IMG/VR virus record: IMGVR_UViG_3300032883_000188
Coordinates: 1-64,000 of that record
Length of the DNA: 64,000 nucleotides
Source of the DNA: a virus
Direction: 5' to 3' (one strand)
The position numbers and the translations under genes were made by a program. The first letter of the stretch is position 1, and each line of letters opens with the position of its first letter. Shown in pieces: positions 178 through 61,251 of this stretch. The notes below the pieces were generated by a model, which was given only the letters and a program-made list of their open reading frames with translations, did not search any database and was not told the DNA's origin.

Positions 178-206
178 TTGACAAATACACGAAAGTGTGG
201 TATAAT
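178..206 (+). promoter_or_regulatory. sigma70-type early promoter
   Basis: TTGACA-17 bp-TATAAT with extended -10 TG. Confidence 0.85.
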
Positions 207-235
207 AAAAGTAACATTTTATCATAGGAGATATA

Positions 236-637
236 ATGAAATCAAACGTAACATATAGTAAAAGTAGTGGCATTACATCTAATGGCAATTGGATTTCTCT
301 TACCCCACTTCCAGTAACAACCAAGGATATAGATAAGCGTACACTTCTTCCAAAATCCGTTGATGTGCTGGATGACAGAAGCATCACCTTCAAGTGGGAA
401 GACGGGGATGTGATTACTGTTGTATGTGACCCGGAAGATACCTTCTCTCTTGACGTTGGCTATGATATTGCTCTTACTTATAAAATATTTGGTGGCAAGC
501 GTGAATTCAAAGACCGCTGGCTAAAGAAAATTGTCAAGATGGCTAAGTTCCATTATACTGACACTAATGTTAAAGCAGATAGGCTGTTGACTAAAGGAAG
601 ATTGGTCAAGAAGTTAAAAAAGGCTAAGGTAAAATAA
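236..637 (+). CDS. hypothetical phage protein
   Basis: 133-aa ORF with AGGAG RBS, just downstream of a promoter. Confidence 0.8.
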   Translation: MKSNVTYSKSSGITSNGNWISLTPLPVTTKDIDKRTLLPKSVDVLDDRSITFKWEDGDVITVVCDPEDTFSLDVGYDIALTYKIFGGKREFKDRWLKKIVKMAKFHYTDTNVKADRLLTKGRLVKKLKKAKVK

Positions 638-638
638 C

Positions 639-839
639 ATGTCTAAGTTGACGATTGAAGAAGTTGGAAAAGATGTAATCAAGCATACCCTCGGGCACTC
701 GATTGATATGCATATTACTGCCGGAGAGATAGAAGACCCTGAATTGTCTGCGCTCTGGTCTGATGCAGAAACAGCCATGAACGCTATTCAATTATTTTTA
801 GAAGAGAAATTGGGTGTAGATTTCTTTGATGTAATATAA
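639..839 (+). CDS. hypothetical protein
   Basis: ORF abutting the previous stop codon. Confidence 0.7.
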   Translation: MSKLTIEEVGKDVIKHTLGHSIDMHITAGEIEDPELSALWSDAETAMNAIQLFLEEKLGVDFFDVI

Positions 840-863
840 AATTATTTTAAATAGGAGACTGAG

Positions 864-1184
864 ATGGATAACTGGTTTAGATTTCCCAATGGTTTGGAAA
901 TTCGTGGTTCGCATGAAGCCATTGTTTATGCCGCAAGAAAATTGGGTTTTGGTGCTATGTTCGATGGCGAATATTATAATTCTAGCACCAAGGGGCTTAT
1001 CAGGATTGATGAAATGGATACAACCCACTTGCGCAATGCCATTCTAAAAATGCATAAGGATTGGGTCGATGGTCTGCGTGAAATAGTTGACCCGGAGAAG
1101 TTGATTTTTTGCTTGAAAAATGATTGCCAAGACCTTAGTTACAAGGCAATGGTAAGAGAATATAGCACTCGTGACCCTGAGTAA
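864..1184 (+). CDS. hypothetical protein
   Basis: AGGAG RBS, 106 aa. Confidence 0.75.
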   Translation: MDNWFRFPNGLEIRGSHEAIVYAARKLGFGAMFDGEYYNSSTKGLIRIDEMDTTHLRNAILKMHKDWVDGLREIVDPEKLIFCLKNDCQDLSYKAMVREYSTRDPE

Positions 1185-1203
1185 AGCAATTTTGCACAAC
1201 CCC

Positions 1204-1232
1204 TTGACAAACAAGGGGTTTTGTGCTATAAT
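1204..1232 (+). promoter_or_regulatory. sigma70-type promoter overlapping an inverted repeat
   Basis: TTGACA-17-TATAAT; CCCCTTG/CAAGGGG inverted repeat around the -35. Confidence 0.8.
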
Positions 1233-1277
1233 TAGAACAGATTAAACTTGTCGTTTTATGCGACTAAGGAGAAAACA

Positions 1278-1448
1278 ATGACACACGAAGAGAAAATTAA
1301 CAACATTGTTAGGATATTAAAAAGTTGGGAATCTCAGTTATCTGATGGATACGAGTGGTATTGTCCTCGCAGGGAGGCTGGAGTGGATGAAACTTTGAGA
1401 AAAATTGCAGTCGAGATTTATAACTCAACAGTAGATGATGCTGTATAA
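1278..1448 (+). CDS. hypothetical protein
   Basis: AAGGAG RBS precedes ATG 1278. Confidence 0.7.
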   Translation: MTHEEKINNIVRILKSWESQLSDGYEWYCPRREAGVDETLRKIAVEIYNSTVDDAV

Positions 1449-1475
1449 AATATGCGTTTTATTTGGAGATAGATT

Positions 1476-1652
1476 ATGGCGACAGAATATGACAGAATTG
1501 AGCATCTTGAGTATCAAGAGTTTCTTTTAGATAAAAAAATTATAAAGGTAGAGTATGATGCTTATTGGATTACTTTAACTCTTTATTTTGATGATGGGAC
1601 GTGTGCTGAAATTTGTCCCTCATATGCACAAGACATATCTATTCATTTATAA
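1476..1652 (+). CDS. small hypothetical protein (58 aa, below ORF-track cutoff)
   Basis: GGAG RBS; translated by hand MATEYDRIEH...SIHL. Confidence 0.65.
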   Translation: MATEYDRIEHLEYQEFLLDKKIIKVEYDAYWITLTLYFDDGTCAEICPSYAQDISIHL

Positions 1653-1661
1653 GAGGTTACA

Positions 1662-1868
1662 ATGAATGATAAACAAATAGTTAACGCGATTGCCTTCTTT
1701 ACAGCTACACCCGCTTTTGTTGGGGTAGCACTTGGGAGCATCCTGCTTATTGCTTGGGGGCTTGAATGGTGGAAAGTGTGGATAATTTCAACAATCTTTT
1801 TATTTTCCGGTGCTTGGGCACTGGCTTGTGGACAAACAAGGGATAAAGAACTTAAGGAGTTAAAATGA
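1662..1868 (+). CDS. small membrane protein
   Basis: Two hydrophobic segments, GAGG RBS. Confidence 0.7.
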   Translation: MNDKQIVNAIAFFTATPAFVGVALGSILLIAWGLEWWKVWIISTIFLFSGAWALACGQTRDKELKELK

Positions 1869-2017
1869 ATACTGTTGTAATCTCAATTTCTTTCGCACTT
1901 GCCGGAGCAAATCTAGCTTGTATGCTTAGTAAACAAGTTTCTTTTCCTGTTCGGGTTTTTAATGGAATTGCTTTTGGACTTTGTTTGGCACTTGGTATTA
2001 CTTCATTAATAAAATAA
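1865..2017 (+). CDS. small membrane protein (50 aa)
   Basis: AAGGAG RBS, ATGA overlap, two hydrophobic segments. Confidence 0.6.
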   Translation: MNTVVISISFALAGANLACMLSKQVSFPVRVFNGIAFGLCLALGITSLIK

Positions 2018-2046
2018 ATCTTTTATGCGAGGCTAATAGGTAAAAA

Positions 2047-2232
2047 ATGACCGAATTCTTAACAGTTTTTTGCGCCAAGATGTTTATATTCTGGTTCAAC
2101 CTGTTAGGCAGACTTGACCCGGACTTGGCGTTCGGTTTGCTTAATTCCATGAATGAGACTGTTGTGTGGATGAGAGAAAAAGATAAAATACAGGAAAACT
2201 ATTTGAATGCTGTGAAAGGAAAAGCAAAATGA
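2047..2232 (+). CDS. hypothetical protein
   Basis: ORF in tightly packed run. Confidence 0.6.
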   Translation: MTEFLTVFCAKMFIFWFNLLGRLDPDLAFGLLNSMNETVVWMREKDKIQENYLNAVKGKAK

Positions 2233-2447
2233 CATTTAGAGATGTGTTTGAAGTACTTAGAGAAATGCTTGGAACAATTATCTTCTTTCTAATTTACCCA
2301 TTCCTGCTCATTTACGATAATATTGCTGATGATATCCGTTTTAGAAAAGAGCAAAAGGAATGGCTGGCTAATTCCTTTCTGTTTGATGGATGTCGTTATA
2401 GCAAGGATACCTTTAAAGTAGTCGATGAAAAGATTGAATTCAAATAA
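2229..2447 (+). CDS. hypothetical membrane-anchored protein
   Basis: ATGA overlap, one hydrophobic segment. Confidence 0.65.
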   Translation: MTFRDVFEVLREMLGTIIFFLIYPFLLIYDNIADDIRFRKEQKEWLANSFLFDGCRYSKDTFKVVDEKIEFK

Positions 2448-2470
2448 AATACATAATTTAAGAGGTTAAT

Positions 2471-2749
2471 GTGAGAACAATTTGGAAATATCATCTCGAA
2501 GTAGAAGATAAGCAAACAATAGAAGTTCCATGGGGAGCAGTACCTATATCTCTCCAAACACAGTTTGAAATACCCTGCGTATGGGTAGATGTTCCGTATT
2601 CAGATACAGAGTTAAAAAGCAATATTACTTTCCTAACTTTTGGAACAGGTCACCCAATAGAAGGAAATATGGATTATTATACTTTTCTTGGCACATATCA
2701 ACTTACAGGCGGAAGCTTGATTTTTCATGTTTTTTATAACATAAGGTGA
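2471..2749 (+). CDS. hypothetical phage protein
   Basis: GAGG RBS; MRTIWKY...GTGHPI...LGTYQ...LIFHVF pattern typical of a small phage family. Confidence 0.75.
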   Translation: MRTIWKYHLEVEDKQTIEVPWGAVPISLQTQFEIPCVWVDVPYSDTELKSNITFLTFGTGHPIEGNMDYYTFLGTYQLTGGSLIFHVFYNIR

Positions 2750-2753
2750 GATA

Positions 2754-3038
2754 ATGAGTGAATACATGGTTGGTACGGCATATGCTCTTAAAGTAAACAT
2801 GCTTGGTAATCTGGCTGGCACGATTGGTTATGTATTTAACCAGTACGAAGATTATGATGATAAAACCAAGTTAGGAGTTCAAATAATATTTCCAAACGGG
2901 GAATATGATGGCTTCTCTGCAAAAGAACAGGAGAGATTTTTAGAGGTTGTTGGTTACAAATGGGAATACTGTACCTACCAGTTCACAAATGTTATACAGG
3001 TGGGTATCGATTTTGCCAAAGGATATTGGAAATGGTAG
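2754..3038 (+). CDS. hypothetical protein
   Basis: AAGGTG RBS, 94 aa. Confidence 0.7.
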   Translation: MSEYMVGTAYALKVNMLGNLAGTIGYVFNQYEDYDDKTKLGVQIIFPNGEYDGFSAKEQERFLEVVGYKWEYCTYQFTNVIQVGIDFAKGYWKW

Positions 3039-3196
3039 ATAACATCATTGCCACATATGCAATATGTCCTGATTGTGGCGAGCATACCCAACTCTGTGAT
3101 GAAGAAATGAGAGATGGTTATGTAAAGTGCTCCGGCTGTGAGCGCATACTTTTTCTTGGTGACCCGCTTGTGAAAATTTATGAGGAATTGGAGTAA
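3032..3196 (+). CDS. small Zn-ribbon protein
   Basis: CPDC...CSGC; internal ATG overlapping the previous stop region. Confidence 0.6.
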   Translation: MVDNIIATYAICPDCGEHTQLCDEEMRDGYVKCSGCERILFLGDPLVKIYEELE

Positions 3197-3202
3197 TAAG
3201 AA

Positions 3203-3586
3203 ATGGGAAATAAATATTATACCAATGTAAATTCTACGGCATCAAACTTATATGGTTTTGATAGCGCTACAACGGGAACGTATAGTTGGGAAAATACTAC
3301 CATAACTTATCCACAAAAACCATCCATTATATATCAAAACGATGATAGTGAATCGAAAGCTCTTAAAGAAAAGGTAAACCAGCTTGAGGCGTTATTCTTC
3401 CGCAAAGTGGTTTCCAAATGTCCTGCCTGTGGGCAGTGGGGCGCGGCACTGTGCGAGTGCAAGCACTGCGGACATCCTATTGACATGGGTGAAGCCCCCA
3501 AGGGCGTAGAAGCCCCGCCAGCACGACAGGATATTGCTGGACGAACATTTGTGGCAAATCCAATAACAGGAGTTAAATATGGCTGA
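3203..3586 (+). CDS. hypothetical Zn-ribbon protein
   Basis: CPAC...CKHC. Confidence 0.7.
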   Translation: MGNKYYTNVNSTASNLYGFDSATTGTYSWENTTITYPQKPSIIYQNDDSESKALKEKVNQLEALFFRKVVSKCPACGQWGAALCECKHCGHPIDMGEAPKGVEAPPARQDIAGRTFVANPITGVKYG

Positions 3587-3779
3587 GTTATCTGAACAAA
3601 CCAAGAAAATTCAAGAACGCATTGAAGAGATGAAGGGCGAAGAAGAACCTCGTATAAAGAGGGAATACTGCCCGATAATGAGTCGGCGCACAGGGGATGA
3701 TTATGTTGCATGTTTAAGAGACAAATGTGCAATGTGGAGTAATTATTATAGCATGTGCGGGCTTATACGTCCAGTTTAA
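3579..3779 (+). CDS. hypothetical Cys-rich protein
   Basis: AGGAG RBS; CP...C....CA.W......C. Confidence 0.7.
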   Translation: MAELSEQTKKIQERIEEMKGEEEPRIKREYCPIMSRRTGDDYVACLRDKCAMWSNYYSMCGLIRPV

Positions 3780-3791
3780 AAAGGTGATTTT

Positions 3792-3950
3792 ATGTTATAT
3801 TCCGTGATTGCCCTTATCAGTTTTTTTATATTTGGTTTTATATTTGGTTTTTTTCTTGCTTGTAAGGCAGTGAGCGAATTAGCCAAAGAAAACAGATGCT
3901 ATATAAAAGATAAGAAAGGCGTTTGGTATCCTAAAAATCCAACTCAATAA
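3792..3950 (+). CDS. small membrane protein (52 aa)
   Basis: ATG lies in the right arm of one boundary motif and TAA in the left arm of the next; N-terminal TM segment. Confidence 0.65.
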   Translation: MLYSVIALISFFIFGFIFGFFLACKAVSELAKENRCYIKDKKGVWYPKNPTQ

Positions 3951-3962
3951 AAGGGTAATTTT

Positions 3963-4181
3963 ATGACATATAAAGAATATAAAAAACCAAGAAAAACGGT
4001 AATAAACAAAAGAGATTCCAAGGCAGGAGAATATCATGTATATACCGTTACCTGTCCTTTTTGTAATACCAGAATGCAAGGGGATTTTCATGGAACACTA
4101 ATGTTCCAATGTTGGACTTGTAAAAACTCGATAGACCTTCGTGGAAAAGACGGTAAACCTGTTTATAAAAAAGAAGATTAA
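3963..4181 (+). CDS. Zn-ribbon protein
   Basis: CPFC...CWTC. Confidence 0.7.
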   Translation: MTYKEYKKPRKTVINKRDSKAGEYHVYTVTCPFCNTRMQGDFHGTLMFQCWTCKNSIDLRGKDGKPVYKKED

Positions 4182-4195
4182 AAGGAATATTTTAT

Positions 4196-4480
4196 ATGGA
4201 TGAAAAATTTACGATTCAATGTGATGGCAATAATATTATTATTAAATTACCAATTGACCTTTTGGTTTTTACCCAAGAACATAGAAATGAACCACCATAT
4301 ATCATAACCAATAAAGAAGAAATGGTTGAACATTTTAAAAAATATTTTCTTGAGTTCTATCAAACAAGAATGACTGACGAAGATGCATCTGATTTTGAGT
4401 ATGCAATTGATAGTTATTTTGATTTTGCATATGAAAACGGTGAAACTTGGATTGAAGAAGAAGAGATAAACGCTGAATAA
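4196..4480 (+). CDS. acidic hypothetical protein
   Basis: ORF bounded by motifs on both sides. Confidence 0.7.
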   Translation: MDEKFTIQCDGNNIIIKLPIDLLVFTQEHRNEPPYIITNKEEMVEHFKKYFLEFYQTRMTDEDASDFEYAIDSYFDFAYENGETWIEEEEINAE

Positions 4481-4494
4481 AAAGGATATTTTAT

Positions 4495-4707
4495 ATGGAT
4501 GAAAAATTTAAACGCGTAAATTTAGACAAAGTTCTTCGCGCAGATGCCGATGGTATGCCAGTATTCAGAAATTGCTTTGAACATGAAATACTCATGAATT
4601 TTTATGATGATGACGGCGCATATGAATTTGAAGATTGGTGGAATCTGGAAGGAAGCGCGTTATTTTATAAATATTTGGAAAATGCGAATCACTGGCTTGT
4701 TGGATAA
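4495..4707 (+). CDS. acidic hypothetical protein
   Basis: AAGGA RBS. Confidence 0.7.
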   Translation: MDEKFKRVNLDKVLRADADGMPVFRNCFEHEILMNFYDDDGAYEFEDWWNLEGSALFYKYLENANHWLVG

Positions 4708-4726
4708 AAAAACAAGGAGAAATAAA

Positions 4727-4951
4727 ATGGATTACGATTTAAATGTACGCTTTACATATCACAAACCTTTTGGAAATCAGCCTGCCCGATATGAAGAAAT
4801 TCGTGCAAGAGCATTAGATTTCGCTGATTATCTTATAAAGCATTGCCCCGATAGCAGGGAATTTTCTTTGGCTCTTACTAAATTAGAAGAGGTTGTCTTT
4901 TGGGCAAATGCGGAAATTGCTAGACACGAAGAAAATACAAGCGAGGAATAA
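4727..4951 (+). CDS. Acb2/Tad1-like helical-hairpin protein (predicted cyclic-nucleotide sponge)
   Basis: FTYH.P...Q..RY..IR...CPDSREFSLALTKLEEVVFWAN resembles the Tad1 C-terminal SRE..CALT..EEA.MW.N; start moved to the ATG after AAGGAG. Confidence 0.7.
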   Translation: MDYDLNVRFTYHKPFGNQPARYEEIRARALDFADYLIKHCPDSREFSLALTKLEEVVFWANAEIARHEENTSEE

Positions 4952-4962
4952 AAGGATGCTTT

Positions 4963-5196
4963 ATGGATGAAAAAGCACTAAGACAATTTGATTATCATCT
5001 TGCGGTTATCGGTTGGCATACGATGGCGATGAAGGCTCACACCAAGGAAATGCCAGAGAAAAGAATTTATATGCATTCTCTTCCTATAAACGTATTTTCA
5101 TCTAAGCTAATAAACCAATATACAAGTTCTTTGGAGAAAGAATTGAATGCTTTTCTCGATGGCAAGCCTTCTCCCTTTGAACCACAAAAGAAATAA
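4963..5196 (+). CDS. hypothetical protein
   Basis: AAGGA RBS. Confidence 0.65.
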   Translation: MDEKALRQFDYHLAVIGWHTMAMKAHTKEMPEKRIYMHSLPINVFSSKLINQYTSSLEKELNAFLDGKPSPFEPQKK

Positions 5197-5197
5197 G

Positions 5198-5359
5198 ATG
5201 AAGAATATGAAAAAAATAAAATGTCCTGATTGCAATAGAGGAAATTTAAGGGCAACACGTAGCATTGGAGGAGTGAAACTAATGTATTGCGGGGTATGCC
5301 ATCTTCTAAAATGGTTTCACCCTTTTGAACTAAAAGAATTAAAACAAATTGTTAAATAA
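5198..5359 (+). CDS. Zn-ribbon protein
   Basis: CPDC...CGVC. Confidence 0.6.
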   Translation: MKNMKKIKCPDCNRGNLRATRSIGGVKLMYCGVCHLLKWFHPFELKELKQIVK

Positions 5360-5371
5360 AAGAGGCATTTT

Positions 5372-5578
5372 ATGACAAATAAGGCAAAATATATTTTAGT
5401 AAACGGGGATTATGTAATGGGAATTGTCTATGAAAGTGATACATATGGAAGAACTCTTGTTTTGGAAAGACACTTAAATCCAAATTATCCATTACAAATT
5501 CATGAAATACATGGAAACCCGGTTATAGTAAAAGATGTTGATTTAATGGAATTTATTCATAGTCTACTTCCAAAATAA
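5372..5578 (+). CDS. hypothetical protein
   Basis: ORF exactly between two boundary motifs. Confidence 0.65.
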   Translation: MTNKAKYILVNGDYVMGIVYESDTYGRTLVLERHLNPNYPLQIHEIHGNPVIVKDVDLMEFIHSLLPK

Positions 5579-5601
5579 AATTCTTGTTTTACGAGGCACA
5601 A

Positions 5602-5919
5602 ATGACATACACTAAAAAGATGCATGATGCGGCAAGGCGTGAAACGATAGGAAAACATAATATTGTAACCGACTTGCTGGACGAAATTGAACGTTTACAA
5701 AACAAAAAACACGGGTATGTGCACCAAACCGATGACGGCGATTGGTATCTTGTGCCAGAAGATGAAACTGAATTATTTTTAACCTGTATTGATAGATTTC
5801 AAAGTGGTTGGAGCGCCGATGAGTTAAGAGATTGGCTTAACCTTTTTGATACAAAATTCAAAAAGTATCGTCTTTCTGGCGGTGTTGAATCTTTGAGCAT
5901 TCCAATGGAGCTAGAATGA
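5602..5919 (+). CDS. hypothetical protein
   Basis: GAGG RBS before ATG 5602. Confidence 0.65.
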   Translation: MTYTKKMHDAARRETIGKHNIVTDLLDEIERLQNKKHGYVHQTDDGDWYLVPEDETELFLTCIDRFQSGWSADELRDWLNLFDTKFKKYRLSGGVESLSIPMELE

Positions 5920-6158
5920 GTTGGGTCAGACCTGAAATGATTAAAGCATGGGAAGCGGAGTGGAAAGATATGCCCGAGTACATACAAGAAGACCTTGAAC
6001 CTGTAAAGGACATCATGGTGCACTTCGAAACAATTGAAGACATGGAAGCCTTTGCCGAGTTGGTGGGACAGGAAATCACGCTTAAGACAAAGGGTATATG
6101 GTATCCAGCCCACGAACGAAGAAGCAGAATAAACAAGGTATACATAGATGAATCCTAA
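5916..6158 (+). CDS. small protein coupled to the TAGT-like glycosyltransferase
   Basis: EWKDMPEYIQ...VHF...F..LVGQ.IT.KTK.IWYP; overlaps both neighbours. Confidence 0.7.
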   Translation: MSWVRPEMIKAWEAEWKDMPEYIQEDLEPVKDIMVHFETIEDMEAFAELVGQEITLKTKGIWYPAHERRSRINKVYIDES

Positions 6159-6978
6159 CTATCCCGTATATATTATATCCAAGGGCAGGTGGGAAAAGCG
6201 TCTCACTGCTAACTCCTTTGAGAAGATGGGTGTACCTTATCATATTGTGGTCGAGCCACAGGAATATGATAACTACGCGCAATACATTGACCCCGAAAAA
6301 ATATTTGTCCTGCCGTTCAGTAATTTGGGGCAAGGGTCAATACCAGCACGCAATTGGGTGTGGGAACATTCTATTGATACCGGGGCAAAGCGCCACTGGA
6401 TACTGGACGATAATATTGCAGGTTTCATCCGGCTTAATCGCAACGAAAGAATACCCGTTGCCTCCGGTACAATCTTCAAAGCCGCCGAGGATTTTGTTGA
6501 CAGATATACTAACATAGCCCTCGCTGGCTTCGGCTATCGCTTCATGGCAGGTGGACACAGGCGCAAGAAACCACCCTTCCGTCTTAATACCGGGGTATAT
6601 TCCTGCATCCTGATTAAAAATGATATTCCGTTCAGGTGGCGTGGACGCTACAATGAGGATTCAGATTTATCAATCAGAGTGTTAAAAGCTGGCTGGTGCA
6701 CATTGATATTCAATGCTTTCATGCAGAATAAAATGGCAACCATGTCTATGAAAGGCGGTAACACGGATGAGTTGTATGCGGGTGATGGACGCTTGAAGAT
6801 GGCACAATCCTTGCAAGAACAGCACCCGGATATTGTCACTGTACAGCGTAGGTTTAATCGCTGGCAACACGTAACTGATTATCGACCTTTTAAAAGAAAC
6901 ACGCTTATAAAAAAGGAAAACATATACATCCCTGACCGAGTAAATAATTACGGGATGATATTAGTTGACAAAAATTAA
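6148..6978 (+). CDS. GREB1-like / TET-associated (TAGT) GT-A glycosyltransferase
   Basis: YPVYIISKGR, IVVEPQE, ARNWVWEH, WILDDNI (DxD-like), YNEDSDL, KGGNTD. Confidence 0.75.
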   Translation: MNPNYPVYIISKGRWEKRLTANSFEKMGVPYHIVVEPQEYDNYAQYIDPEKIFVLPFSNLGQGSIPARNWVWEHSIDTGAKRHWILDDNIAGFIRLNRNERIPVASGTIFKAAEDFVDRYTNIALAGFGYRFMAGGHRRKKPPFRLNTGVYSCILIKNDIPFRWRGRYNEDSDLSIRVLKAGWCTLIFNAFMQNKMATMSMKGGNTDELYAGDGRLKMAQSLQEQHPDIVTVQRRFNRWQHVTDYRPFKRNTLIKKENIYIPDRVNNYGMILVDKN

Positions 6979-6993
6979 TTTTTGTGGTATAAT
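6965..6993 (+). promoter_or_regulatory. sigma70-type promoter
   Basis: TTGACA-17-TATAAT with TG. Confidence 0.85.
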
Positions 6994-7841: not shown

Positions 7842-8307
7842 TTTTAGTAAAGACCTGCCAGTTGCAATAAAAACAGAACAGGAAATAGCCGAAAGGCTGG
7901 AAAAAGTATATGGGTCTGTCATAATGCAGTTTGAAAAAACCAATAAATATGATTTATTGGTGCGTGCAAACGGTCTTGATTATGACCCAACCAAGATACT
8001 AAAAATAGAAATAAAAGAAGATTTCACCTGCGAGCGCACGGATAACGTTGGGCTTGAGTTCCAATGCAGGGGAAAACCATCCGGCATAAATGTAACCGAG
8101 GCAGATTATTATATCTACAAGTTGCATACCAAAACGGACGGAATCCAATATGTCATGCACTCCGTTCCCGCCCTTAGAAAAAAGATAGCTAACGGAGAAT
8201 ACTTTCGTATAGTTAGCGGCGGGGATGAAGGCTCTAACAGCATGAACTATTTGTTTAAGCGTAATATCTTTCTGAAAGACGGAAAAATACTGCCTCTTGA
8301 CAAATAG
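7828..8307 (+). CDS. PD-(D/E)XK-like nuclease-fold protein
   Basis: YDLL...IEIKED...TDNVGLEF...PSGINVTEADY. Confidence 0.6.
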   Translation: MPNYDFSKDLPVAIKTEQEIAERLEKVYGSVIMQFEKTNKYDLLVRANGLDYDPTKILKIEIKEDFTCERTDNVGLEFQCRGKPSGINVTEADYYIYKLHTKTDGIQYVMHSVPALRKKIANGEYFRIVSGGDEGSNSMNYLFKRNIFLKDGKILPLDK

Positions 8308-8325
8308 GGTAAAGTGTGGTATAAT
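8297..8325 (+). promoter_or_regulatory. sigma70-type promoter for the recombination/replication module
   Basis: TTGACA-17-TATAAT with TG. Confidence 0.85.
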
Positions 8326-8377: not shown

Positions 8378-8740
8378 ATGAAATTGATAGTAATTACAGA
8401 TGGTAGTACGGAAAATTTTGAAAAAATGCTCGACATAGTGGGGAAAACGAAAATCCCTTCGCTTTTTATAATCACAAAACTTTGTGATGAAACGAGCGAA
8501 TACAACTTTCTACTTGATAATATCAAGTGGTTCTCGGAAAAAGGCGACCTGCAATTATTGGTTGCTAAATTCTCAGGCAGGGAAACCGTTGCCAACGAAT
8601 TGGGCGATGTGTGTCCTGAAATGATTGTCCCGCTTAGTTATAATAAACAAAGCAGATATTATGCGGAACAACCTGTAAAAACATTTTTAGACTTGGTTCA
8701 CATATTTAATAGAGGAGACTTAAATGGCATTAGAACTTAG
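8378..8740 (+). CDS. hypothetical protein
   Basis: 120-aa ORF. Confidence 0.65.
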   Translation: MKLIVITDGSTENFEKMLDIVGKTKIPSLFIITKLCDETSEYNFLLDNIKWFSEKGDLQLLVAKFSGRETVANELGDVCPEMIVPLSYNKQSRYYAEQPVKTFLDLVHIFNRGDLNGIRT

Positions 8741-9722
8741 AAAGGCACAACGTAGTAAAGCATACCTGAAATTAGGTCTGTCTGCTCCGAGTGGTGGTGG
8801 CAAGACTTTAGGTGCGCTCTTAATCGCTTATGGCTTGATGAAAGAGAAGTACCCCAAGGCAACTGACGCCGAACGTTGGAGCAAGATTGCAATTATCGAT
8901 ACCGAGAACGGTTCTGGTGAACTGTATGTCGGCAAGGAAATTTCTGGCATCAAAATCGGTGTATACGATGCAGTCACACTACATGCCCCATTTGAAGCAG
9001 ACAAGTATACTGAGGCGATTGCTTTATGCAAAGATAGCAATATTGAAGTCTGCATTATTGACTCCACCACCCATCTATGGAGTGGTGAAGGCGGCTTGCT
9101 CGAACAGCAAAACGCCGCCGCAAAACGCGGGGGCAACAGTTATACCGCATGGCGCGATATTACCCCGCAACACAACCGTTTTGTAAACGCCATGTTACAG
9201 ACCCCCATTCATATCATTGCAACCATGCGCGCCAAGCAAGAATACGTACAAGAAAAGGACTCGACTACCAATAAGACGACTGTCCGTAAACTTGGACTTG
9301 AACCTGAACAACGCAAGGGCATGGAGTACGAATTTACCACATTCTTGGACATTGATGCCGAGCATACCGCATTTGGTTCAAAGGATAGAACCAGCCTGTA
9401 TGACCAGAAGTACTTTAAGATTACCCCTGAAATCGGGACGGTAATGATGAAGTGGCTGGAAAGCGGCGTTGATAATGCACCAGAAGTTGTGGCTGTTTCC
9501 GTACATCCTGCCGAAAAGAAAAGTGCAATGACTGAGGTTGAAGACGATATTATTAATCGTTGCAGGGCGCTTGGCGGTAGTAAGAATGAAGCATTAATGG
9601 CGTTGGTTATGAAATACGCCCCCAACAAAAACCCGAAATCAATTAAGGACGAGGCAAAACTTGCCGAACTGCGCTCAGAGATAATTGAATTCGAGAAAGC
9701 AACCGCACCTACTGCGGCATAA
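8724..9722 (+). CDS. Sak4-like AAA ATPase (recombination)
   Basis: Walker A APSGGGKT, IIDTENGS, Walker B CIIDS; adjacent to SSB. Confidence 0.85.
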   Translation: MALELRKAQRSKAYLKLGLSAPSGGGKTLGALLIAYGLMKEKYPKATDAERWSKIAIIDTENGSGELYVGKEISGIKIGVYDAVTLHAPFEADKYTEAIALCKDSNIEVCIIDSTTHLWSGEGGLLEQQNAAAKRGGNSYTAWRDITPQHNRFVNAMLQTPIHIIATMRAKQEYVQEKDSTTNKTTVRKLGLEPEQRKGMEYEFTTFLDIDAEHTAFGSKDRTSLYDQKYFKITPEIGTVMMKWLESGVDNAPEVVAVSVHPAEKKSAMTEVEDDIINRCRALGGSKNEALMALVMKYAPNKNPKSIKDEAKLAELRSEIIEFEKATAPTAA

Positions 9723-19603: not shown

Positions 19604-19775
19604 TTATTGTAGGATTACTTATTCTATTTGCTCTGATTATACTTGGGGTTATTTGGTATGTTGCAAGAGAAGGTTTAAAAATAATAAACGCAATAGATAG
19701 ATTTGAAGCAGAATTGAATGACGAGCCGAAACTAGACTGATGGAATAAAATCCGTCTTTTATAAAATGGAGGACG

Positions 19776-21482
19776 ATGGAAAATATTACTTTTGAGAACG
19801 TTAGACCTTTATCTCAAACCGCAAAACAGATACTAAACAAAAGGTATATGCAAGAAGGCGAAAAGACTTGGGATGAACTTGTTGATAGGGTAATGAATAC
19901 CATTGTTCCCAAGGAAAGTGATGACTTTTTACCTACTAAGGAAATGATTAGTCATCGTTATTTTCTTCCTAATTCCCCTTGTCTGGCTAATGCAGGAAAA
20001 GAAGGGGCTGGTTTATGCGCTTGCTATGTGGTTGATTTTAAAGATACTACCGAAGGCATTATCAAGACCAAAGCCGACTTTATTTATGTCGCCCGTAAAG
20101 GAGGCGGCTGTGGCACAAGCTTGAGCAAATTACGTCCAAAAGGCTCTATTGTTGCACATAGTTCGCATGGCTATGCGGGAGGGCCGGTGGGTTTCGCTGA
20201 TACGATTTCACACGACATGAAAGTATTTACGCAGGGAGGTTTGCGTGGCATGGCAATTATGTTTACCATGTCTGTTTATCATCCTGATGTGATTGATTTT
20301 ATACAAGCCAAACAAAACGAAGAGGACAGGAAAATAGAGAATGCCAACATGTCCGTGGTGGTTGACAATCGCTTCATGGAATTGGTTAAGGCGGATGCTA
20401 AATACTGGACTGAATTTAATGGAGTAAAGTACAAGGAATATAACGCTCGAGACATTTTTAACTTGATTATAGAAGGCGCATGGAGAAATGGAGAGCCGGG
20501 ATTATTGTTTCAAGACGCCATCGATAACTCCCCCTACATGCACACCGGACAGAAAATACAGGCTACGAACCCGTGCTCTGAACAGCCCTTGCCCCCAAAC
20601 GGGGTTTGTAATCTAGGTTCGCTAGACCTTTCAAAATTTGTTGGCAAAGATAAAATAATGGATTTTTCCAAACTGGAATATGCCACCCGCTTGGGTACAC
20701 GCTTCCTTGATAGAGTAGTGGACAAGTCTGTTTATCCGACACCTGAAATCAGCGAATGGGCGCAGGAAAATCGTGCCATTGGTATGGGTATCATGGGTTT
20801 TGCGGATTATTGTTTGATGAGGCAGATTGCCTATGGCTCAGAACAGTCCATATTAGAACTGGACTATATTTTGTTTAATATATACGCATGGACAAGAGAT
20901 GAATCCGAGAAATTAGGCAAGACTCTCGGAGTACCCAAGGAATGCAGAAAATTACCCGCTCCCCGCAGGAATATCACGATTACAACTGTTGCCCCAACTG
21001 GTACGGTAAGCCTTATAGCGGGATGCTCGAGTGGAATTGAACCCATCTTTTCAGAGATTACTATACGCAATGATAAAACTGGTACGTATGTTTTCGAAGA
21101 TAAGCTGGCAGATAAACCCTATTTTCGTTGTGCGGTTTCAGCCAACGGCGCGCAGGAAGTTACTTGGGAAGAGCATGTAAGTGTGCTGGCAACCGCACAG
21201 AAGAATGTTGACTCCGGCGTAAGCAAGACCATTAACTTCCCAACCATGACCCACAGGGACACGATTTCAAAAGCTGTCTTTATGGCGTGGGAGAAAGGCT
21301 GTAAAGGTATTGCGGTTTACCGTAATGGCAGTCGCAAGATTGAAGTTCTTACACCTAAGAACATCAAGCAGGACAAGTGCCCGAACTGCGAAACCCCGCT
21401 GGTGATGATTGCCAATGTAAGAAGTTGTCCTTCCTGTGGTTGGAAGGTTAAGATTGAGACCGAAGTTAAAGTAGAGGCATAA
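19776..21482 (+). CDS. nrdJ: class II (B12-dependent) ribonucleotide reductase
   Basis: PNSPCL.NAG, NGEPG, TNPCSEQPL, CNLGSL, VAPTGT; no beta subunit nearby. Confidence 0.85.
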   Translation: MENITFENVRPLSQTAKQILNKRYMQEGEKTWDELVDRVMNTIVPKESDDFLPTKEMISHRYFLPNSPCLANAGKEGAGLCACYVVDFKDTTEGIIKTKADFIYVARKGGGCGTSLSKLRPKGSIVAHSSHGYAGGPVGFADTISHDMKVFTQGGLRGMAIMFTMSVYHPDVIDFIQAKQNEEDRKIENANMSVVVDNRFMELVKADAKYWTEFNGVKYKEYNARDIFNLIIEGAWRNGEPGLLFQDAIDNSPYMHTGQKIQATNPCSEQPLPPNGVCNLGSLDLSKFVGKDKIMDFSKLEYATRLGTRFLDRVVDKSVYPTPEISEWAQENRAIGMGIMGFADYCLMRQIAYGSEQSILELDYILFNIYAWTRDESEKLGKTLGVPKECRKLPAPRRNITITTVAPTGTVSLIAGCSSGIEPIFSEITIRNDKTGTYVFEDKLADKPYFRCAVSANGAQEVTWEEHVSVLATAQKNVDSGVSKTINFPTMTHRDTISKAVFMAWEKGCKGIAVYRNGSRKIEVLTPKNIKQDKCPNCETPLVMIANVRSCPSCGWKVKIETEVKVEA

Positions 21483-21841: not shown

Positions 21842-22121
21842 TATTGGCGTTGGTTTTGGTCTAGCCTTGGCTATGCTCAAAGAGGGAAGGCGAGTATATC
21901 GCATGGGTTGGAATGGCAAAGGCATGTGGCTGGTGATTGCTTACCAGACAGCAAATGAATTCAAAAAAGAAAAACCTATTAAATTCAATAAACAATATGA
22001 AGATATGGATGTGCTATATCTTGAAAACTTTATTGCTATGAAAACAGTGGATGGTAAACTTGTGCCATGGTTGGCTTCTCAAACCGATATACTCGCAGAA
22101 GATTGGTGTATGATAGATTAA
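21831..22121 (+). CDS. Tad2 / DUF2829 anti-defence sponge family
   Basis: FG.AL..LKEG..V.R.GWNGKGM...W..SQTD.LAEDW. Confidence 0.85.
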   Translation: MADSIGVGFGLALAMLKEGRRVYRMGWNGKGMWLVIAYQTANEFKKEKPIKFNKQYEDMDVLYLENFIAMKTVDGKLVPWLASQTDILAEDWCMID

Positions 22122-22150
22122 AATGAGCTTTTTATAACCTTCAAAACAGT

Positions 22151-33019: not shown

Positions 33020-36000
33020 TTAGTTAACGTACTGGTTGGTCGCTCTGGTTACGCCTCTTTTGCGAAACGTATCATTCATTTTTTCCATCAACTTGTCTGC
33101 AATACGCTCAATATCGGGTATAACATTCTTGTCCAGATTACCCATTACCGTGATTGGCATGGAAACACTTGCGTTACCCATGCTCCCACTCTTGTTCAAG
33201 TTATTTAGTGCGGATAGACCAATGGAATCTACGATGTTTTTCCTTAGAACGAATTCTCCGGGCATCAACATAGTATTAACAGAATCTTGATTAGGAATAC
33301 CACCTGTAATTAAACCGCCCTCGGCTACTGGCGTAGCTATTGGTCTCATCGGTGTTGCTTTTTTACGTCTACTTACAGTTATAGTACCGTCAGACCAAGC
33401 AGTATCACTTATTTCATATGTCTTATCGGTGGGGTCTGTTCTCCATGCTGATATGCTCATTGGTGTTCTTTGAGTCTTTTGAGTAGTACCACCACCAACA
33501 CTTCCCCCTACACCCCCTTTGTTACCCATTTTATCTAGAATTTCTTTTAAGGCTTCTCTAAGCTTTTCTATGAATTTGTCAATCAAGTCTATTTGAGCAT
33601 TTATCATGTCTTCATAGATTCTATATTCTTTATCCAAGGCTTCAACTTGAAGGTTGTAGCTTCTGTCGGCTTGGGTTTTTTCCAAGTCCGCCTGTGCTTT
33701 ATCCAAATTTTCCTGTAATTGCAAGCGCTTTGCCTGTGCTTCTTCGCTGTTGTCGAGTGAAATGGCAAGTAATTCAGCTTGTATCTTGGAAACACTTTTC
33801 TGTTTATCACGCAGGGTATCTTGATAATCAGATTCGTCTTTCATAGCCTTTAAGATGGCTTTACGAGCATCGATGATTTTCTTAAAGCCTTCCAGTTTAT
33901 CTTTTAAGGCTTTCTTTTCGTTTTCGGCATCTTTTATTTTCAGGTCATATTCGTCTTGAATCTTTTTTCTAGCCGCATCTGCACCGCCTCCGCCCCCACC
34001 CCCACTAGCAGAAGCTTTCCCAAGAGAATTCAATTGAGCTACAAGTGCTTGTATTTGCAACACTTGCGCGTGAGTCATTCTTGAGCCTACGGCTTCAATT
34101 TCCGCAAACACATACAAACCATTGGCGGCTACTTTAAGAGCACCAACAAGATTATAAAGAGCAAGTTGATGATTTATTAATTCTATCAGATGGGTCTTTG
34201 CGGATTGTGTATCAAAAATAAAAGCATCTCCAACCATGGTTATATATTGTGCCAGTTGAGGATATTTACTAATAAGGTTATTAACAGTATCCGCGGTTAT
34301 TGAATTGTTCTTTGCTTGCTCTATTGCCGCATTATTTATAGCATCGAATTCAGAGTTAAGTTCATCAAATGTTGGAATTGCCGAAGCAACACTATTGTTT
34401 AAATTAATAACAGCATTGGCGGCGCGCATTTGAGCATCTGTCAAATCATTAGCACCAAATATCATATTCATTAATGTTTCTGAATATGATGATGCAGATT
34501 CATTTCCTATTTCCCATTTACCGTTTACATTGTCTATTCTTACGCCCAATACTTCCCAATCTTCTATTTCTTTTGAAGTAATAGTTCCCTTGCTAATTTT
34601 ATCCTGTAAATCCCTAAAGTCTTTCCAAGCCGCTTGCAGTTTTGCCATACCAACAGCAAAACCAGATGGGTCAAGCGTTGGCTTTATTACTGGTTGAGCG
34701 CCAAATTCTGCTTCTCTTGCCTTAGCATACAAATTGTAAAGATTTTCAGTATTTGTTTTTGTTGCCTCATCCCACATGCTCTTATAGAAATCTGAAAATT
34801 CCTTTTTCAAATCAGGGTCTACAAGTTTAGCCATAAAAGCTTTTTGGGCTTCCATACCCATATTGCTAAAATCAACTTTTGCCTTTGCAATAGCTTCTCT
34901 GTACTCTGCTTCTTCCATTGGGGTAAGTTTATTTTTTGAAACCCAACCTGTTCCACCGCTCTTCCCCCCGGGTTTGTTAAGAGTATATTTTGCTTCATTA
35001 AGAGCCTGTGCTTCCAAATTATAGGCTTCTTTATTTTGTAAATCTAGAAGCGCTTTCTTCGCATCTATTTCCTCTAAAATTGCTTGCGTTTGGGCTTTTA
35101 TACTATCGGTACTGGTGATTATGAAGTTTCCATAAGTGTCATAATAACCTATCAACCCCGGCAAGATTGATTTTAATTGATTTTGAACATCAGTTAGTCT
35201 TTGTGTTTCGTCCGCTGTTTTCTTTGTATTTGCGCTTAAAGTTTTAAACTCTTCTGAAAGATTATAAATACTTTTTTTGTTTGCATAAAGGTCGTCAAGC
35301 ACTGTTTTAGTATCTTTTATTTCGCCCTGTATATCAACTAATTCTTCTTTTGCACTTTTTGTATTTATTATAAATAATGCAAGAGCACCAATCGCTAAGG
35401 AAAGAACTAGTCCTATTCCTCCTGCGCTTGTAAGAAAAGCGAGTACTGATGCTGTAACCGTATCTATTGCCCCGGCTGTTATCCATAAAGCCGCATCTAA
35501 AACTGAAAGTCCTGCGGCATCAGCCAGTGCCGCCGTAACCATACCCACAAAACTAATAATAAGTTTTCCAACCTGTTCTCTATAAAGTATTGTAATAGCA
35601 ACCCCTAATGCTATTATAACAGCCTTTAATCCACCAATCTTTGTTATCCAGTTAACGATAGATGCCAAAGTATTATTAAGGGTTATAATTAAACCATTAA
35701 AATCTTTTCCGCTTTGTACAAGTCCCTGAAAGGATGCCTTTAATCTGTTTTGTGAGGCTTCAACATTTCTCAAATAAATGGAATATCTATCCATTGCCAA
35801 ACCAGCGGAATTAGCTTCTATTCCCTGTAACTTTAAAGCCATGTTCATGTTCTGCATGAGAACATTAAACATGTTACGCTGACGTACACCCGCGATTGCT
35901 TTACCAATATTCGCCTGTTCTACTTCGTTAAGAGTATTCCATTTACCAGCAAGTTCTTCAAGCACTGCACTAAAATCTCTAAAAGAGACATCGCTATCAC

Positions 36001-37343: not shown

Positions 37344-38342
37344 CTATATTTTCAAATTTTCTAATTCCTTGTATGTCCTGTCCTTCGCGGAAGAATCATC
37401 ATAAACCGAAACCATGCTTAAATCTGACCACCCGAATATTTCCTTAATAAGAACGTGGGGTATATTCTGCTTGGAAAGCAGAGTGGTCAGATAATGTCTT
37501 AGCGCATGAGTATAAAATGGGACTTTTAAGCGCTTTTCAAACGCTCTTACCCACCCGCGCACGGTTGCGCCAGTAGCCGGAGTGCCATTCAGTTTAACAA
37601 AAAGAAAGTTATGATTTAACTTCTTGGCTTTTAAAAGTTTGGCACGCTCGAGTAACCACGCCTTGTAATAAGGCAGGAATTTTTCAGCCAGTATATACTT
37701 GTAAAGAAGTTTACCCGCTTTACCCCTGCCCTTGGTCTTTAACTGGCGGGTTGTTTCCAAGAACAACGTACCAAAAGCAGTCCTGTTTTCGTCTATCATG
37801 TCTGTTTCGAAGATTAGTAATTCTGAAAACCTAGCCCCACTACAAATCGCCAGTGCCAGCCAACAAGCCTGTTGCTTGTTGTGCTTTGACAGATATTTAA
37901 GAAGACTTTCAATTTGCTCGGCTGTCAGAATGGTTTTCTCTCTGCGCATCTCTTTTGGAGTAGATTCGACTACACGCAGAATAACATTGCGGAAAGTTGG
38001 GTATTCTTCATCGTAAAATTTTTCAATAAATGTTGACAGAGATGATAACACACTGCGCATATTATTTAACTTGGAAGAACCAACCCGTAATTCATCAACG
38101 GCAAAACTAAAGAAGTCTGCAAATTCCAACTTCTTGATATCTACAAAGAACTTGTTCTCGTTGTGTAACAAGTTCCACGTAAAGAACATTTTTAGATTGG
38201 ATTCGTAGACCACAATGGTTTTGTCGCTTGTGCGGGTGGATTTCTCTTTTAGAAATCTTTGCATCAAGTCGATATTCTTTGGGTTTATCTGTTTAGTCAA
38301 TTCGTCCGAAGTTATCTTGTTACGAAAAGTTATTCTTGGCAT
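37344..38342 (-). CDS. tyrosine recombinase
   Basis: GARFSE (R), KGRG (K), HALRH, GW...Y catalytic set. Confidence 0.9.
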   Translation of the reverse strand: MPRITFRNKITSDELTKQINPKNIDLMQRFLKEKSTRTSDKTIVVYESNLKMFFTWNLLHNENKFFVDIKKLEFADFFSFAVDELRVGSSKLNNMRSVLSSLSTFIEKFYDEEYPTFRNVILRVVESTPKEMRREKTILTAEQIESLLKYLSKHNKQQACWLALAICSGARFSELLIFETDMIDENRTAFGTLFLETTRQLKTKGRGKAGKLLYKYILAEKFLPYYKAWLLERAKLLKAKKLNHNFLFVKLNGTPATGATVRGWVRAFEKRLKVPFYTHALRHYLTTLLSKQNIPHVLIKEIFGWSDLSMVSVYDDSSAKDRTYKELENLKI

Positions 38343-38805
38343 TATGATAACCCCCTGTAAATTTAAAATAAGTTATACCAACCGCAAAGGCGTCTGATTC
38401 ATCAAAACTATTAAATTTAATATCAGGATTTTCTTTTAGAATGACATTTCTTAGTTCTTCCTTACTCATATTACCCTTTCCACCAACAACTTTTTTAACC
38501 GTAGTAGCCGGATAATATATTTGTTCATAATTACAAAAAATATAATTTGCAATGCCGTGTACTCTGAATATTGCCTGAGTGCTTTTATTATATAGGGTAA
38601 AACCCTGCTCGATAACAATTACCTCAGGCGTGTATTTTTTAATTAATCTAATAAATTCTTTACCAATCATTCTAAGTTTCAGCTTGGATTCATCCTCGCT
38701 TTTCGTGTCTATGGTTATCGCTTCTACGAATTTACCATCATTGGTAAAAATACAAACACCTGTGGAATTAAGGGATAAGTCAAGTGCGTAAACGTATGTT
38801 TCCAT
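38320..38805 (-). CDS. RuvC-like Holliday junction resolvase
   Basis: ALDLSLNSTG, VIEQGF, VKK..G.G.M.KEE, DESDA. Confidence 0.85.
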   Translation of the reverse strand: METYVYALDLSLNSTGVCIFTNDGKFVEAITIDTKSEDESKLKLRMIGKEFIRLIKKYTPEVIVIEQGFTLYNKSTQAIFRVHGIANYIFCNYEQIYYPATTVKKVVGGKGNMSKEELRNVILKENPDIKFNSFDESDAFAVGITYFKFTGGYHNAKNNFS

Positions 38806-38859
38806 GTGTGCTCCCATAAAAGGAAGGGTGAGGCGTTTTGCCCCACCCTTCCAAATTAT

Positions 38860-55542: not shown

Positions 55543-55618
55543 TTTTTCCTCCACGAAATAAAATTCGTATTTTAAATGCTTAGGGGAGAATTGAACTCCC
55601 CCAAACACCAGTTAAGCA

Positions 55619-56335
55619 TTAAATTTTTCTAAACATTCCCAAGAATGCGGCAAAACAACCGTTTGGTTTAGGAGGTTGTGGAACGCCATTAACCTTTTCC
55701 ACAGCCGCCAGTGCTTCACCGCCATATCTGAATAAAACTGAAAATTCTGAAATCGGTATGTAGGCTCTGCCCATTATACCCCATTCATTGCCCCAAGAGT
55801 TCTGAATACCGAATAAGGCGTCATCTTTGACCTCGTTAATAAGGTAAGCGTGCCCTCCGGCAACATCCCCTGTTGGGTGAATTACGTTTTCGGAATCCGG
55901 GGTGAACATATCATTTGTCCAATCCGTACCAATAATCAGTGGGCCTTTGTTCACCAGCCAGTATTTAATTTCATTGACAGAGGAGGCAAATGCATAAGCA
56001 TCAATCATGCCTTCCTGCCTGAGTACAGTTGCCGCAGAACGAACGGTTGAACCATTTTCCTGCTCGGGTTCGCCATCCACAATCTTGCATTTGTAATAGA
56101 AACTGTGTCCGTTCGCATTTGTAAAAGCATCCTGTACAGGAAAGCAAATGCCCCAATCTGCCATGGAAAATCCAACACAGTGTCCGGTGTCACCTTGGTT
56201 CAATGTAGGGAGCGCAAACTCCCAACGTGTATCAGGTGCAACAAAAGCATTCGCGCCTTTTCTCGGCATGAATGCTGAAAGGGAATAATCCCTTGCATCG
56301 AACTTGGAGCGATTTCTACCTAAAGGATATATCAT
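55619..56335 (-). CDS. papain-like (C1A) cysteine peptidase
   Basis: NQG.TGHCVGFS, GGHA, QNSWG..WG..G. Confidence 0.9.
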   Translation of the reverse strand: MIYPLGRNRSKFDARDYSLSAFMPRKGANAFVAPDTRWEFALPTLNQGDTGHCVGFSMADWGICFPVQDAFTNANGHSFYYKCKIVDGEPEQENGSTVRSAATVLRQEGMIDAYAFASSVNEIKYWLVNKGPLIIGTDWTNDMFTPDSENVIHPTGDVAGGHAYLINEVKDDALFGIQNSWGNEWGIMGRAYIPISEFSVLFRYGGEALAAVEKVNGVPQPPKPNGCFAAFLGMFRKI

Positions 56336-61233: not shown

Positions 61234-61251
61234 GGGTATAAAATCTTTATT

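Follow-up and report, generated by a model that had tools for sequence, protein, structure and literature searches.

A dif-like palindrome at the gene junctions of an SPbeta-like phage as a candidate joint for gene-block exchange

The dif site occurs once per chromosome, resolves dimers and has arms of about 11 bp. Related sites, known as pdif sites or dif modules, are found on Acinetobacter plasmids, where their orientation alternates and the XerC and XerD recombinases of the host are used. Here, we describe a short palindrome, TAAAA-N6-TTTTA, that lies at gene junctions of a virus represented by the first 64 kb (the window, i.e., the whole stretch of DNA analyzed) of the 81.8-kb IMG/VR viral contig IMGVR_UViG_3300032883_000188, which is estimated to be 57% complete. 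The closest described site is difH of the Campylobacterales, the target of XerH (TGAAAA-CTATAA-TTTTCA), in which a change of the four As abolishes recombination (PMC3325230). PeSLs of T4-type phages consist of a sigma70-like promoter and a terminator stem-loop and recombine by homology (PMC2839356, PMC4122927). The stoperators of L5 number 20-30 per genome and are mostly away from promoters (PMC6550527); in the Cluster A mycobacteriophages, stoperators lack symmetry, follow the direction of transcription and are recognized by a monomeric immunity repressor (PMC6550527, PMC9283540). SPBRE, a repeated intergenic element of SPbeta, is bound by MrpR, a protein with a tyrosine-recombinase fold (PMC10516654). 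The palindrome of the window is identical to the one found throughout SPbeta-like phages at their gene junctions, and because of comparative evidence from the relatives of SPbeta its best-supported function would be that of a fixed joint for the exchange of gene blocks between related phages.

The window holds 14 exact copies of TAAAA-N6-TTTTA, as compared to 0.60 ± 0.75 expected from 100 dinucleotide-preserving shuffles (largest value 3), so that the motif is indeed far rarer by chance than observed, as a first, sequence-only reading of this DNA had roughly estimated. The excess is specific to the six-base spacer, because a scan from N0 to N12 (0, 0, 1, 1, 2, 0, 14, 0, 2, 2, 2, 1 and 0 copies), the check that had been proposed with that reading, peaks sharply at N6 alone and leaves N5 and N7 empty. 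In the complete 81.8-kb contig, 15 copies are present, compared to 0-3 at any other spacer length, and the reversed control ATTTT-N6-AAAAT has none. The consensus of the dyad, A-TAAAA-(t)NNNN(a)-TTTTA-T, includes a flanking A and T that widen the 5+6+5 layout to 6+6+6. TAAAA-N6 ranks first among five-base dyads in the window phage, in its relative G001 and in SPbeta, the centres all differ within one genome, and about 40 of 55 copies are intergenic, though the genomes are about 90% coding. A literature search retrieved no paper describing the motif; the motif string matched only an unrelated archaeal regulator. We conclude that the motif is genuine, specific and of long standing, most likely a dyad in DNA to which a protein binds. 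The proposed likeness to the core geometry of tyrosine-recombinase sites is borne out, as the two inverted arms enclose a centre within the 6-8 bp of Xer/dif sites in an exact 5+6+5 arrangement. With difH the palindrome shares the inverted A-tract and T-tract arms around a 6-bp centre. It differs from dif in that the phage genomes hold 15-34 sites, each with its own centre and placed at gene junctions, and in that the window lineage conserves 6+6 bases only. The resemblance to pdif sites is that gene modules which vary from one related replicon to the next lie between numerous dif-like sites; in contrast to pdif sites, those of the phage have a symmetric sequence, overlap stop and start codons and occur in a fixed order.

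With homologues of the YonF terminase (35% identity), YonG, the tape-measure protein, YomG and YomM, the window phage is, judged by its proteins, a distant SPbeta-like phage. SPbeta c2 itself (NC_001884) carries 34 N6 copies versus 0-4 at other spacers, in a layout whose longer arms (TYTARA-TAAAA) resemble an 11-6-11 arrangement. Phage Tsamsa, for which only the reversed control was compared, probably has the N6 excess as well (23 copies versus 3). When the 83-96 kb region of SPbeta was compared with phi3T, SPbetaL8, Goe13, SPbetaL3 and Goe11, the centres GATGCA, GTAAAA, AGACTG, GATAGT, TATTTA, ACGATA and GTAATT were found in the same order. At each centre, left- and right-flank types are mixed in different ways, and all combinations occur. 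The change in similarity coincides exactly with the ends of the 16-mer, and centres are kept even where both flanks are non-homologous. The yoqD unit, which is bounded by a site at both ends, is 99.9% identical between SPbeta and Goe13, whereas its neighbours are 88-94% identical. Another motif-to-motif unit of SPbeta (sites 87599-88400) has no counterpart in phi3T, and the homology on its left stops inside an arm of the single site that phi3T has at this place. Since mosaic boundaries fall at gene junctions anyway, a control restricted to junctions was added for the whole SPbeta-phi3T comparison: 42 of the 73 block ends lie in junctions, and 12 of these 42 lie in the 12% of junctions that carry the motif. 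The association of breakpoints with the motif is real and about 2.4-fold (p = 0.003, or 0.014 if weighted by length), but not exclusive. The sequence-only reading had proposed crossover sites or scars of a gene-shuffling system, to be checked against gain and loss breakpoints in related phages. This part of the proposal stands insofar as the flanks of the SPbeta relatives reassort exactly at the palindrome.

The other part, an integron-style capture, is not supported. Under this reading, the sites would be attC-like ends of cassettes that excise as circles and insert at any site. Tiny genes without promoters follow one another in a single direction and have a repeated site at their ends, and four open reading frames (ORFs) run from motif to motif, which would be in keeping with such capture. 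However, neither an IntI-type integrase nor an attC-like structure was found: the recombinase encoded in the window (37344-38342) scores only 20.7 bits on the integron-integrase model TIGR02249 (cut-off 265), and the sites are 16-bp perfect dyads in intergenic gaps of 11-29 nt, not attC folds of 57-141 nt. All centres differ within a genome and, in the SPbeta relatives, each holds its place in the order; copies behave like position-specific joints, not like interchangeable ends. The motif joined to a gene start encoding MDEK, as seen in the window, was found nowhere else in viral contigs. We regard integron-style capture as very improbable.

Nine of the 11 junction copies originally listed within 5.4 kb of the early region are exact (206, 1446, 2010, 3777, 3948, 4179, 4478, 5357 and 5576), and those at 2445 and 4948 turned out to be degenerate. 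In nine of the 11 the TAA of the left arm is the in-frame stop codon of the upstream gene, which does not hold for 206, located behind a promoter, or for 2010, whose spacer contains the stop codon. Site 206-221 (centre GTAACA) begins at the final -10 base of promoter 178-206 and spans the likely transcript start. A copy with one mismatch (1243-1258, TAAAC TTGTCG TTTTA) lies 3' of promoter 1204-1232 and 5' of gene 1278-1448, the stop codon of which is the TAA of site 1446-1461 (TATGCG); here, the Shine-Dalgarno (SD) sequence of the next gene is found 3' of the site. At 2010-2025 (TAAATC) the centre includes the stop of gene 1865-2017, and at 2445-2460, where the right arm reads ATTTA (one mismatch), the TAA terminates gene 2229-2447. 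Site 3777-3792 has an SD sequence in its centre (AGGTGA), its TAA ends gene 3579-3779 and its right arm overlaps the ATG of gene 3792-3950, which is followed by site 3948-3963 (GGGTAA) with the stop of this gene and the start of gene 3963-4181. Sites 4179-4194 (GGAATA) and 4478-4493 (AGGATA) are part of the left and right copies of a 43-nt direct repeat (4169-4211 and 4468-4510) around gene 4196-4480. The degenerate site 4948-4963, which reads TAAAAGGATGCTTTA / TAAAAGGATGCTTTAT, separates the Acb2/Tad1-like gene 4727-4951 from gene 4963-5196. Site 5357-5372 (GAGGCA) contains the stop of gene 5207-5359 and the start of gene 5372-5578, and site 5576-5591 (TTCTTG), with the stop of the latter gene, is the final one of the early array. 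A further near-copy at 837 has an N3 spacer. An ATG falls in or directly after the right arm at 3777, 3948, 4179, 4478, 4948 and 5357, and ORFs 3792-3950, 3963-4181, 4196-4480 and 5372-5578 are exact motif-to-motif units, both as first described.

Outside the early array, exact copies are found at 19746-19761, upstream of the ribonucleotide reductase gene 19776-21482, at 22119-22134, where the plus-strand genes switch to the minus-strand block, at 55559-55574, upstream of the YonG-like first late gene, and at 61239-61254, where the minus-strand TAA is the stop of gene 61252-61782 and 5 nt separate the site from the -35 box of a consensus promoter that follows it. The minus-strand copy at 37513-37528 is located inside the recombinase gene and codes for LKVPFY just before the HxLRH box. 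Six junctions of 11-14 nt follow the scheme TAA-AA-(SD-like hexamer)-TTTT-(AT)ATG; in the remaining copies the centre lacks an SD sequence and the true SD sequence is downstream. The motif could be considered a by-product of composition, i.e., of a TAA, an A-rich lead, an SD hexamer, a U-rich spacer and an ATG that meet in a compact genome rich in A and T. An SD-like centre with an ATG at the right arm is indeed present in five copies, and one-mismatch variants with SD centres occur at 21531 and 57043. Such a by-product would not leave N5 and N7 empty, however, and at least nine copies have no SD sequence in their centre. Junctions of the replication genes (6-22 kb) consist of TAG or TAA and a short SD sequence and have no arms (for example TAGgagactatATG); as these junctions differ, the motif is not the general stop-RBS-start habit of this phage (RBS, ribosome-binding site), and the earlier statement that RBS context is insufficient to explain it is upheld. 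Unrelated loci, AT-rich in many cases, show no N6 excess, and the GC content of the early region is merely a few points below that of the rest of the phage. An origin in composition is hence hardly credible.

Nearly all copies are transcribed junctions, five of them with an SD sequence in the would-be loop and an AUG directly after it, and there is a mild strand asymmetry, with G or T at the first centre position in 38 of 41 oriented copies. These features would suit an RNA element, in which a UAAAA-N6-UUUUA hairpin at the stop and start codons is the target of a translational repressor or of a processing nuclease. Yet a stem of five A-U pairs is unstable on its own, the arm bases never switch to other pairing combinations, and matches between the outer flanks are no more common than between shuffled sites (2.53 vs 2.68 expected in SPbeta, 1.83 vs 1.95 in the window lineage). 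At the sites searched, matches to Rfam families all remained below threshold, and some copies are located at strand switches or abut -35 boxes. Because the flanks lack covariation, the stem is weak and no Rfam match at these sites is above threshold, two independent protein half-sites on DNA are favoured, and the processing hairpin that had been named as an alternative appears improbable. At a few sites (1243, 5576, 55559 and 27237 in relative G004) the centre and downstream bases could form a second hairpin, which is not a general feature.

A more serious rival, and the main one, is that a regulator of the phage or host binds the dyads as operators or roadblocks to shut off or pace the early genes. 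This regulator could be a recombinase-fold repressor like MrpR of SPbeta, in which case recombination would be a by-product of small conserved islands. The dyad symmetry with its exact spacing is compatible with an operator, as are the concentration of copies in early transcription units and the overlap of site 206 with a -10 box and transcript start. Sites 61239 and, in G004, 83118 abut -35 boxes, and some placements are kept between orthologous loci, namely ahead of the first late gene and within 75-255 nt of the tape-measure gene on its upstream side. There are precedents in the L5 stoperators (PMC6550527) and in the tyrosine-recombinase-fold repressor on a repeated SPbeta element (PMC10516654). 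Stoperators, too, are present in tens of copies per genome and mostly off promoters, but the phage site is symmetric, and no repressor was identified. SPBRE is likewise a repeated intergenic element of the same phage family with a recombinase-fold binder, but has another sequence and 10 peaks at promoters compared to 34 junction sites. Nine of the 10 genes at peaks of MrpR in chromatin affinity purification sequencing share the upstream core AATATGTATA instead of the TAAAA dyad; identity of the motif with the MrpR site was thus rejected. What an operator does not predict is the exact switching of flanks at the 16-mer and the conservation of centres between non-homologous flanks. Moreover, most copies are away from promoters, exactly on stop codons inside operons, and no conserved helix-turn-helix regulator common to the window lineage and SPbeta was detected. 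We therefore consider a role as operator or roadblock somewhat less likely than one as a joint; it could coexist with recombination, as in PeSLs. PeSLs resemble the sites as short repeated elements between small non-essential early genes, at which recombination shuffles accessory genes among relatives. The motif, however, is a 16-bp dyad without a stable stem and mostly not at promoters: consensus promoters in the window are found only at 178, 1204, 6965 and 8297, and no terminator-like hairpin is present at the sites.

For exchange at the sites, the candidate enzyme is a Xer-like, YomM-like tyrosine recombinase encoded on the minus strand (37344-38342). It is predicted to have two domains, its catalytic residues are kept, and R171, K204, H279, R282, W305 and Y314, i.e., the R-K-H-R-H/W-Y set of Xer recombinases, are conserved across the lineage, in which it is among the best-conserved proteins (67-83% identity). 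The best matches among solved structures are XerA, XerH (5jjv), Tn1549 Int and XerD, and the best NCBIfam models are XerA, XerD, XerC and XerS, all below cut-off. The presence of XerH, a simple Xer-type recombinase, among these matches is a second likeness to the difH system. The gene adjoins that of a RuvC-like Holliday-junction resolvase (38320-38817, minus strand), for which orthologs are listed in relatives G001 and G002; the two form a conserved pair (37344-38817, minus strand) beside the tape-measure gene. Large siphoviruses of Firmicutes commonly encode homologues of the recombinase, examples being SPbeta (YomM), Tsamsa, the Lactococcus 949 group, Staphylococcus SEP9 and Enterococcus phages. 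A motif excess occurs alongside a recombinase homologue in SPbeta, the window lineage and, probably, Tsamsa.

Relatives of the window phage (G000) were collected with the protein encoded at 8724-9722 and the recombinase as anchors (62-83% protein identity), of which G001, G002, G004 and G005 were taken whole. These contain 11, 10, 17 and 7 N6 copies, respectively, versus 0-7 at other spacers. In G002, five copies fall within the first 1.7 kb, where they separate small early genes that are not related to the early genes of the window. Orthologous sites are found upstream of the YonG-like first late gene in G000 (55559), G001 (3248) and G005 (34590), with all 10 arm bases kept and centre and flanks diverged, which suggests that the arms are under selection. 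The copy in the recombinase gene (37513) is present at the same place in G001 and G005 and is probably kept by the protein sequence. G006 has a possible N7 variant (7 copies in inconsistent context). As a negative control, 80 loci were fetched with the g24/g25 anchor (6148-6978), which have only that two-gene module in common; these unrelated phage loci (1 Mb, many of them AT-rich) show no N6 excess. A scan of genome contigs found one distant homologue in a Clostridium sp. scaffold with 0 motif copies in 8.9 kb. Metagenome scans for closer contigs and a viral scan with protein P0012 (see below) found nothing, and no joints were seen in one freshwater DNA sequencing run, which contained 5% of the words and yielded scraps of 151 nt only; no RNA run was listed as containing the sequence. 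Other dyads are strongly over-represented in some of these genomes: GGGCC/TGGGC-N2/AAGGG-N7 in G004 (12 copies each, near promoters at 125 and 62833) and ACCGG-N5-CCGGT in G005 (50 copies). In SPbeta (NC_001884), the annotated palindromes TTGTAATGCATTACAA and GTAAACCATATGGTTTAC at 77856-77871 and 82394-82411, which differ in sequence from the motif, lie on either side of the yopM-yopR lysogeny operon.

Directly upstream of site 55559, on the minus strand at 55575-55640, the window contains what resembles the 3' part of a tRNA, with a GGTTCGATTCC-like T-arm and an acceptor strand. This part is kept in three phages (also G001 3190-3247 and G005 34606-34660) and ends in CCA in G005; ARAGORN called no tRNA there, and Rfam matches were below threshold.

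Possible traces of exchange in the lineage of the window phage are found at two places. In the 43-nt direct repeats that contain the site and flank gene 4196-4480, 25 nt including the first five codons are identical; the two genes at the repeat are not paralogues. The DEKF sequence is native to the family of gene 4196-4480, relatives of which (P0001, P0003 and P0004, on contigs of 1.4-2.2 kb) have at least 85% identity. P0012, encoded on a 70.5-kb contig, matches residues 7-105 of the protein from gene 5602-5919 without a difference, yet the clusters of nine other early proteins that were looked up have no member from this contig, which hints at a breakpoint near site 5576, unless it reflects the contig edge. 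By analogy with the SPbeta relatives, we infer that crossover may have occurred in this lineage too.

Genes of the window are encoded on the plus strand over 1-21.8 kb, with about 26 tiny early genes up to 6.1 kb, a two-gene module (5916-6978) and a replication block that encodes a Sak4-like AAA_24 protein, a single-stranded DNA-binding protein, a replication O-like protein, a primase-helicase, a PD-(D/E)XK nuclease, a DNA polymerase, NT5C, ribonucleotide reductase and MazG; structural genes follow on the minus strand from 22.4 kb onward. The product of early gene 4727-4951 matches the Pfam Acb2/Tad1 hairpin domain (E = 1.4e-16) and is likely a sponge for signalling nucleotides of CBASS or Thoeris, which places anti-defence genes in the early region. 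Early gene 2471-2749 matches DUF7352 (E = 6e-22). The module 5916-6978 encodes an 80-aa protein and a 276-aa protein that matches PHROG 842 ('beta-glucosyl-HMC-alpha-glucosyltransferase'); it is present in more than 570 viral contigs of widely varied GC content at 62-69% identity, without common neighbour genes. The four consensus promoters named above are perfect and of the sigma-A type (TTGACA-17-TGnTATAAT). They belong to a family of near-identical strong promoters (cccTTGACAaaa...TGTGGTATAAT) at 178-206, 1204-1232, 6965-6993, 8297-8325 and 16412 and, on the minus strand, at 59692, 61113 and 61233, which is also plentiful in G001 and G004, often directly 3' of tRNA genes. A terminator-like hairpin at 1199-1232 (CCCCTTG-ACAAA-CAAGGGG-TTTT) and the -35 box of the consensus promoter that follows overlap in a PeSL-like terminator-promoter unit.

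Taken together, we assign a probability of roughly 40% to the explanation that the palindrome is a two-fold-symmetric, dif-like site for a dimeric protein that acts as a joint for the exchange of gene blocks. Several observations weigh against it. The 6+6 bases kept in the window lineage are short for a recombinase arm, which in dif has about 11 bp. Centres of orthologous sites are not conserved between relatives at about 70% nucleotide identity. The 43-nt repeat around gene 4196-4480 runs 17 nt past the right arm and thus fits short-homology recombination near the site better than exchange within the centre. Most breakpoints in junctions of SPbeta and phi3T (30 of 42) are at junctions without the motif. 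No segment of at least 85% identity was found in any pair among G000-G009 that includes a motif-bearing genome, the sole match being G007-G008. Finally, recombinase homologues occur without motif excess in G009 (138 kb), G008, Staphylococcus phage SEP9 and Enterococcus phage nattely, which weakens the unproven link between the site and recombinase 37344-38342. A laboratory hybrid of phi3T and SPbeta (PP526179) also lends no support, but it is uninformative because both of its crossovers lie inside kilobase-long identical tracts.

In the window phage, the site takes up what little non-coding sequence separates the small early genes for accessory and anti-defence functions, and its TAA doubles as the upstream stop codon; at the tightest junctions, the free six-base centre carries the ribosome-binding site and the ATG comes after the right arm. 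If the sites are indeed joints, exchange could proceed as follows. One recombinase monomer would bind each arm and cleave at the edges of the six-base centre. As each copy has its own centre, exchange would be completed only with the same junction in a co-infecting relative or a resident prophage, so gene blocks would be swapped at fixed joints and gene order would not be scrambled. The reaction would be catalysed by a Xer-type tyrosine recombinase, encoded either by the phage (37344-38342, beside the RuvC-like resolvase) or by the host. We infer the enzyme, the strand-exchange chemistry, the role of centre identity as an address and exchange in the window lineage; that the sites are probably docking and crossover sites of a protein is suggested by their layout and by the SPbeta comparison. 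More speculatively, SPbeta-like phages might possess a system of addressed recombination joints, in which the six-base centres are position labels read by a Xer-type enzyme, perhaps with a RuvC-like resolvase, and accessory and anti-defence blocks are traded by co-infecting relatives or prophages with their order kept.

The persistence of the motif in a lineage with a terminase only 35% identical to that of SPbeta argues for an old, conserved protein partner. The idea of crossover joints is directly testable, because SPbeta and phi3T are genetically tractable in Bacillus subtilis. If the sites were operators instead, they would constitute an undescribed genome-wide regulatory layer in a model phage. 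If they are crossover joints, they would explain in concrete terms how the mosaicism that has long been noted in phage accessory regions comes about, and how anti-defence genes, such as the Acb2/Tad1-like gene in the window, could be exchanged without breaking operons.

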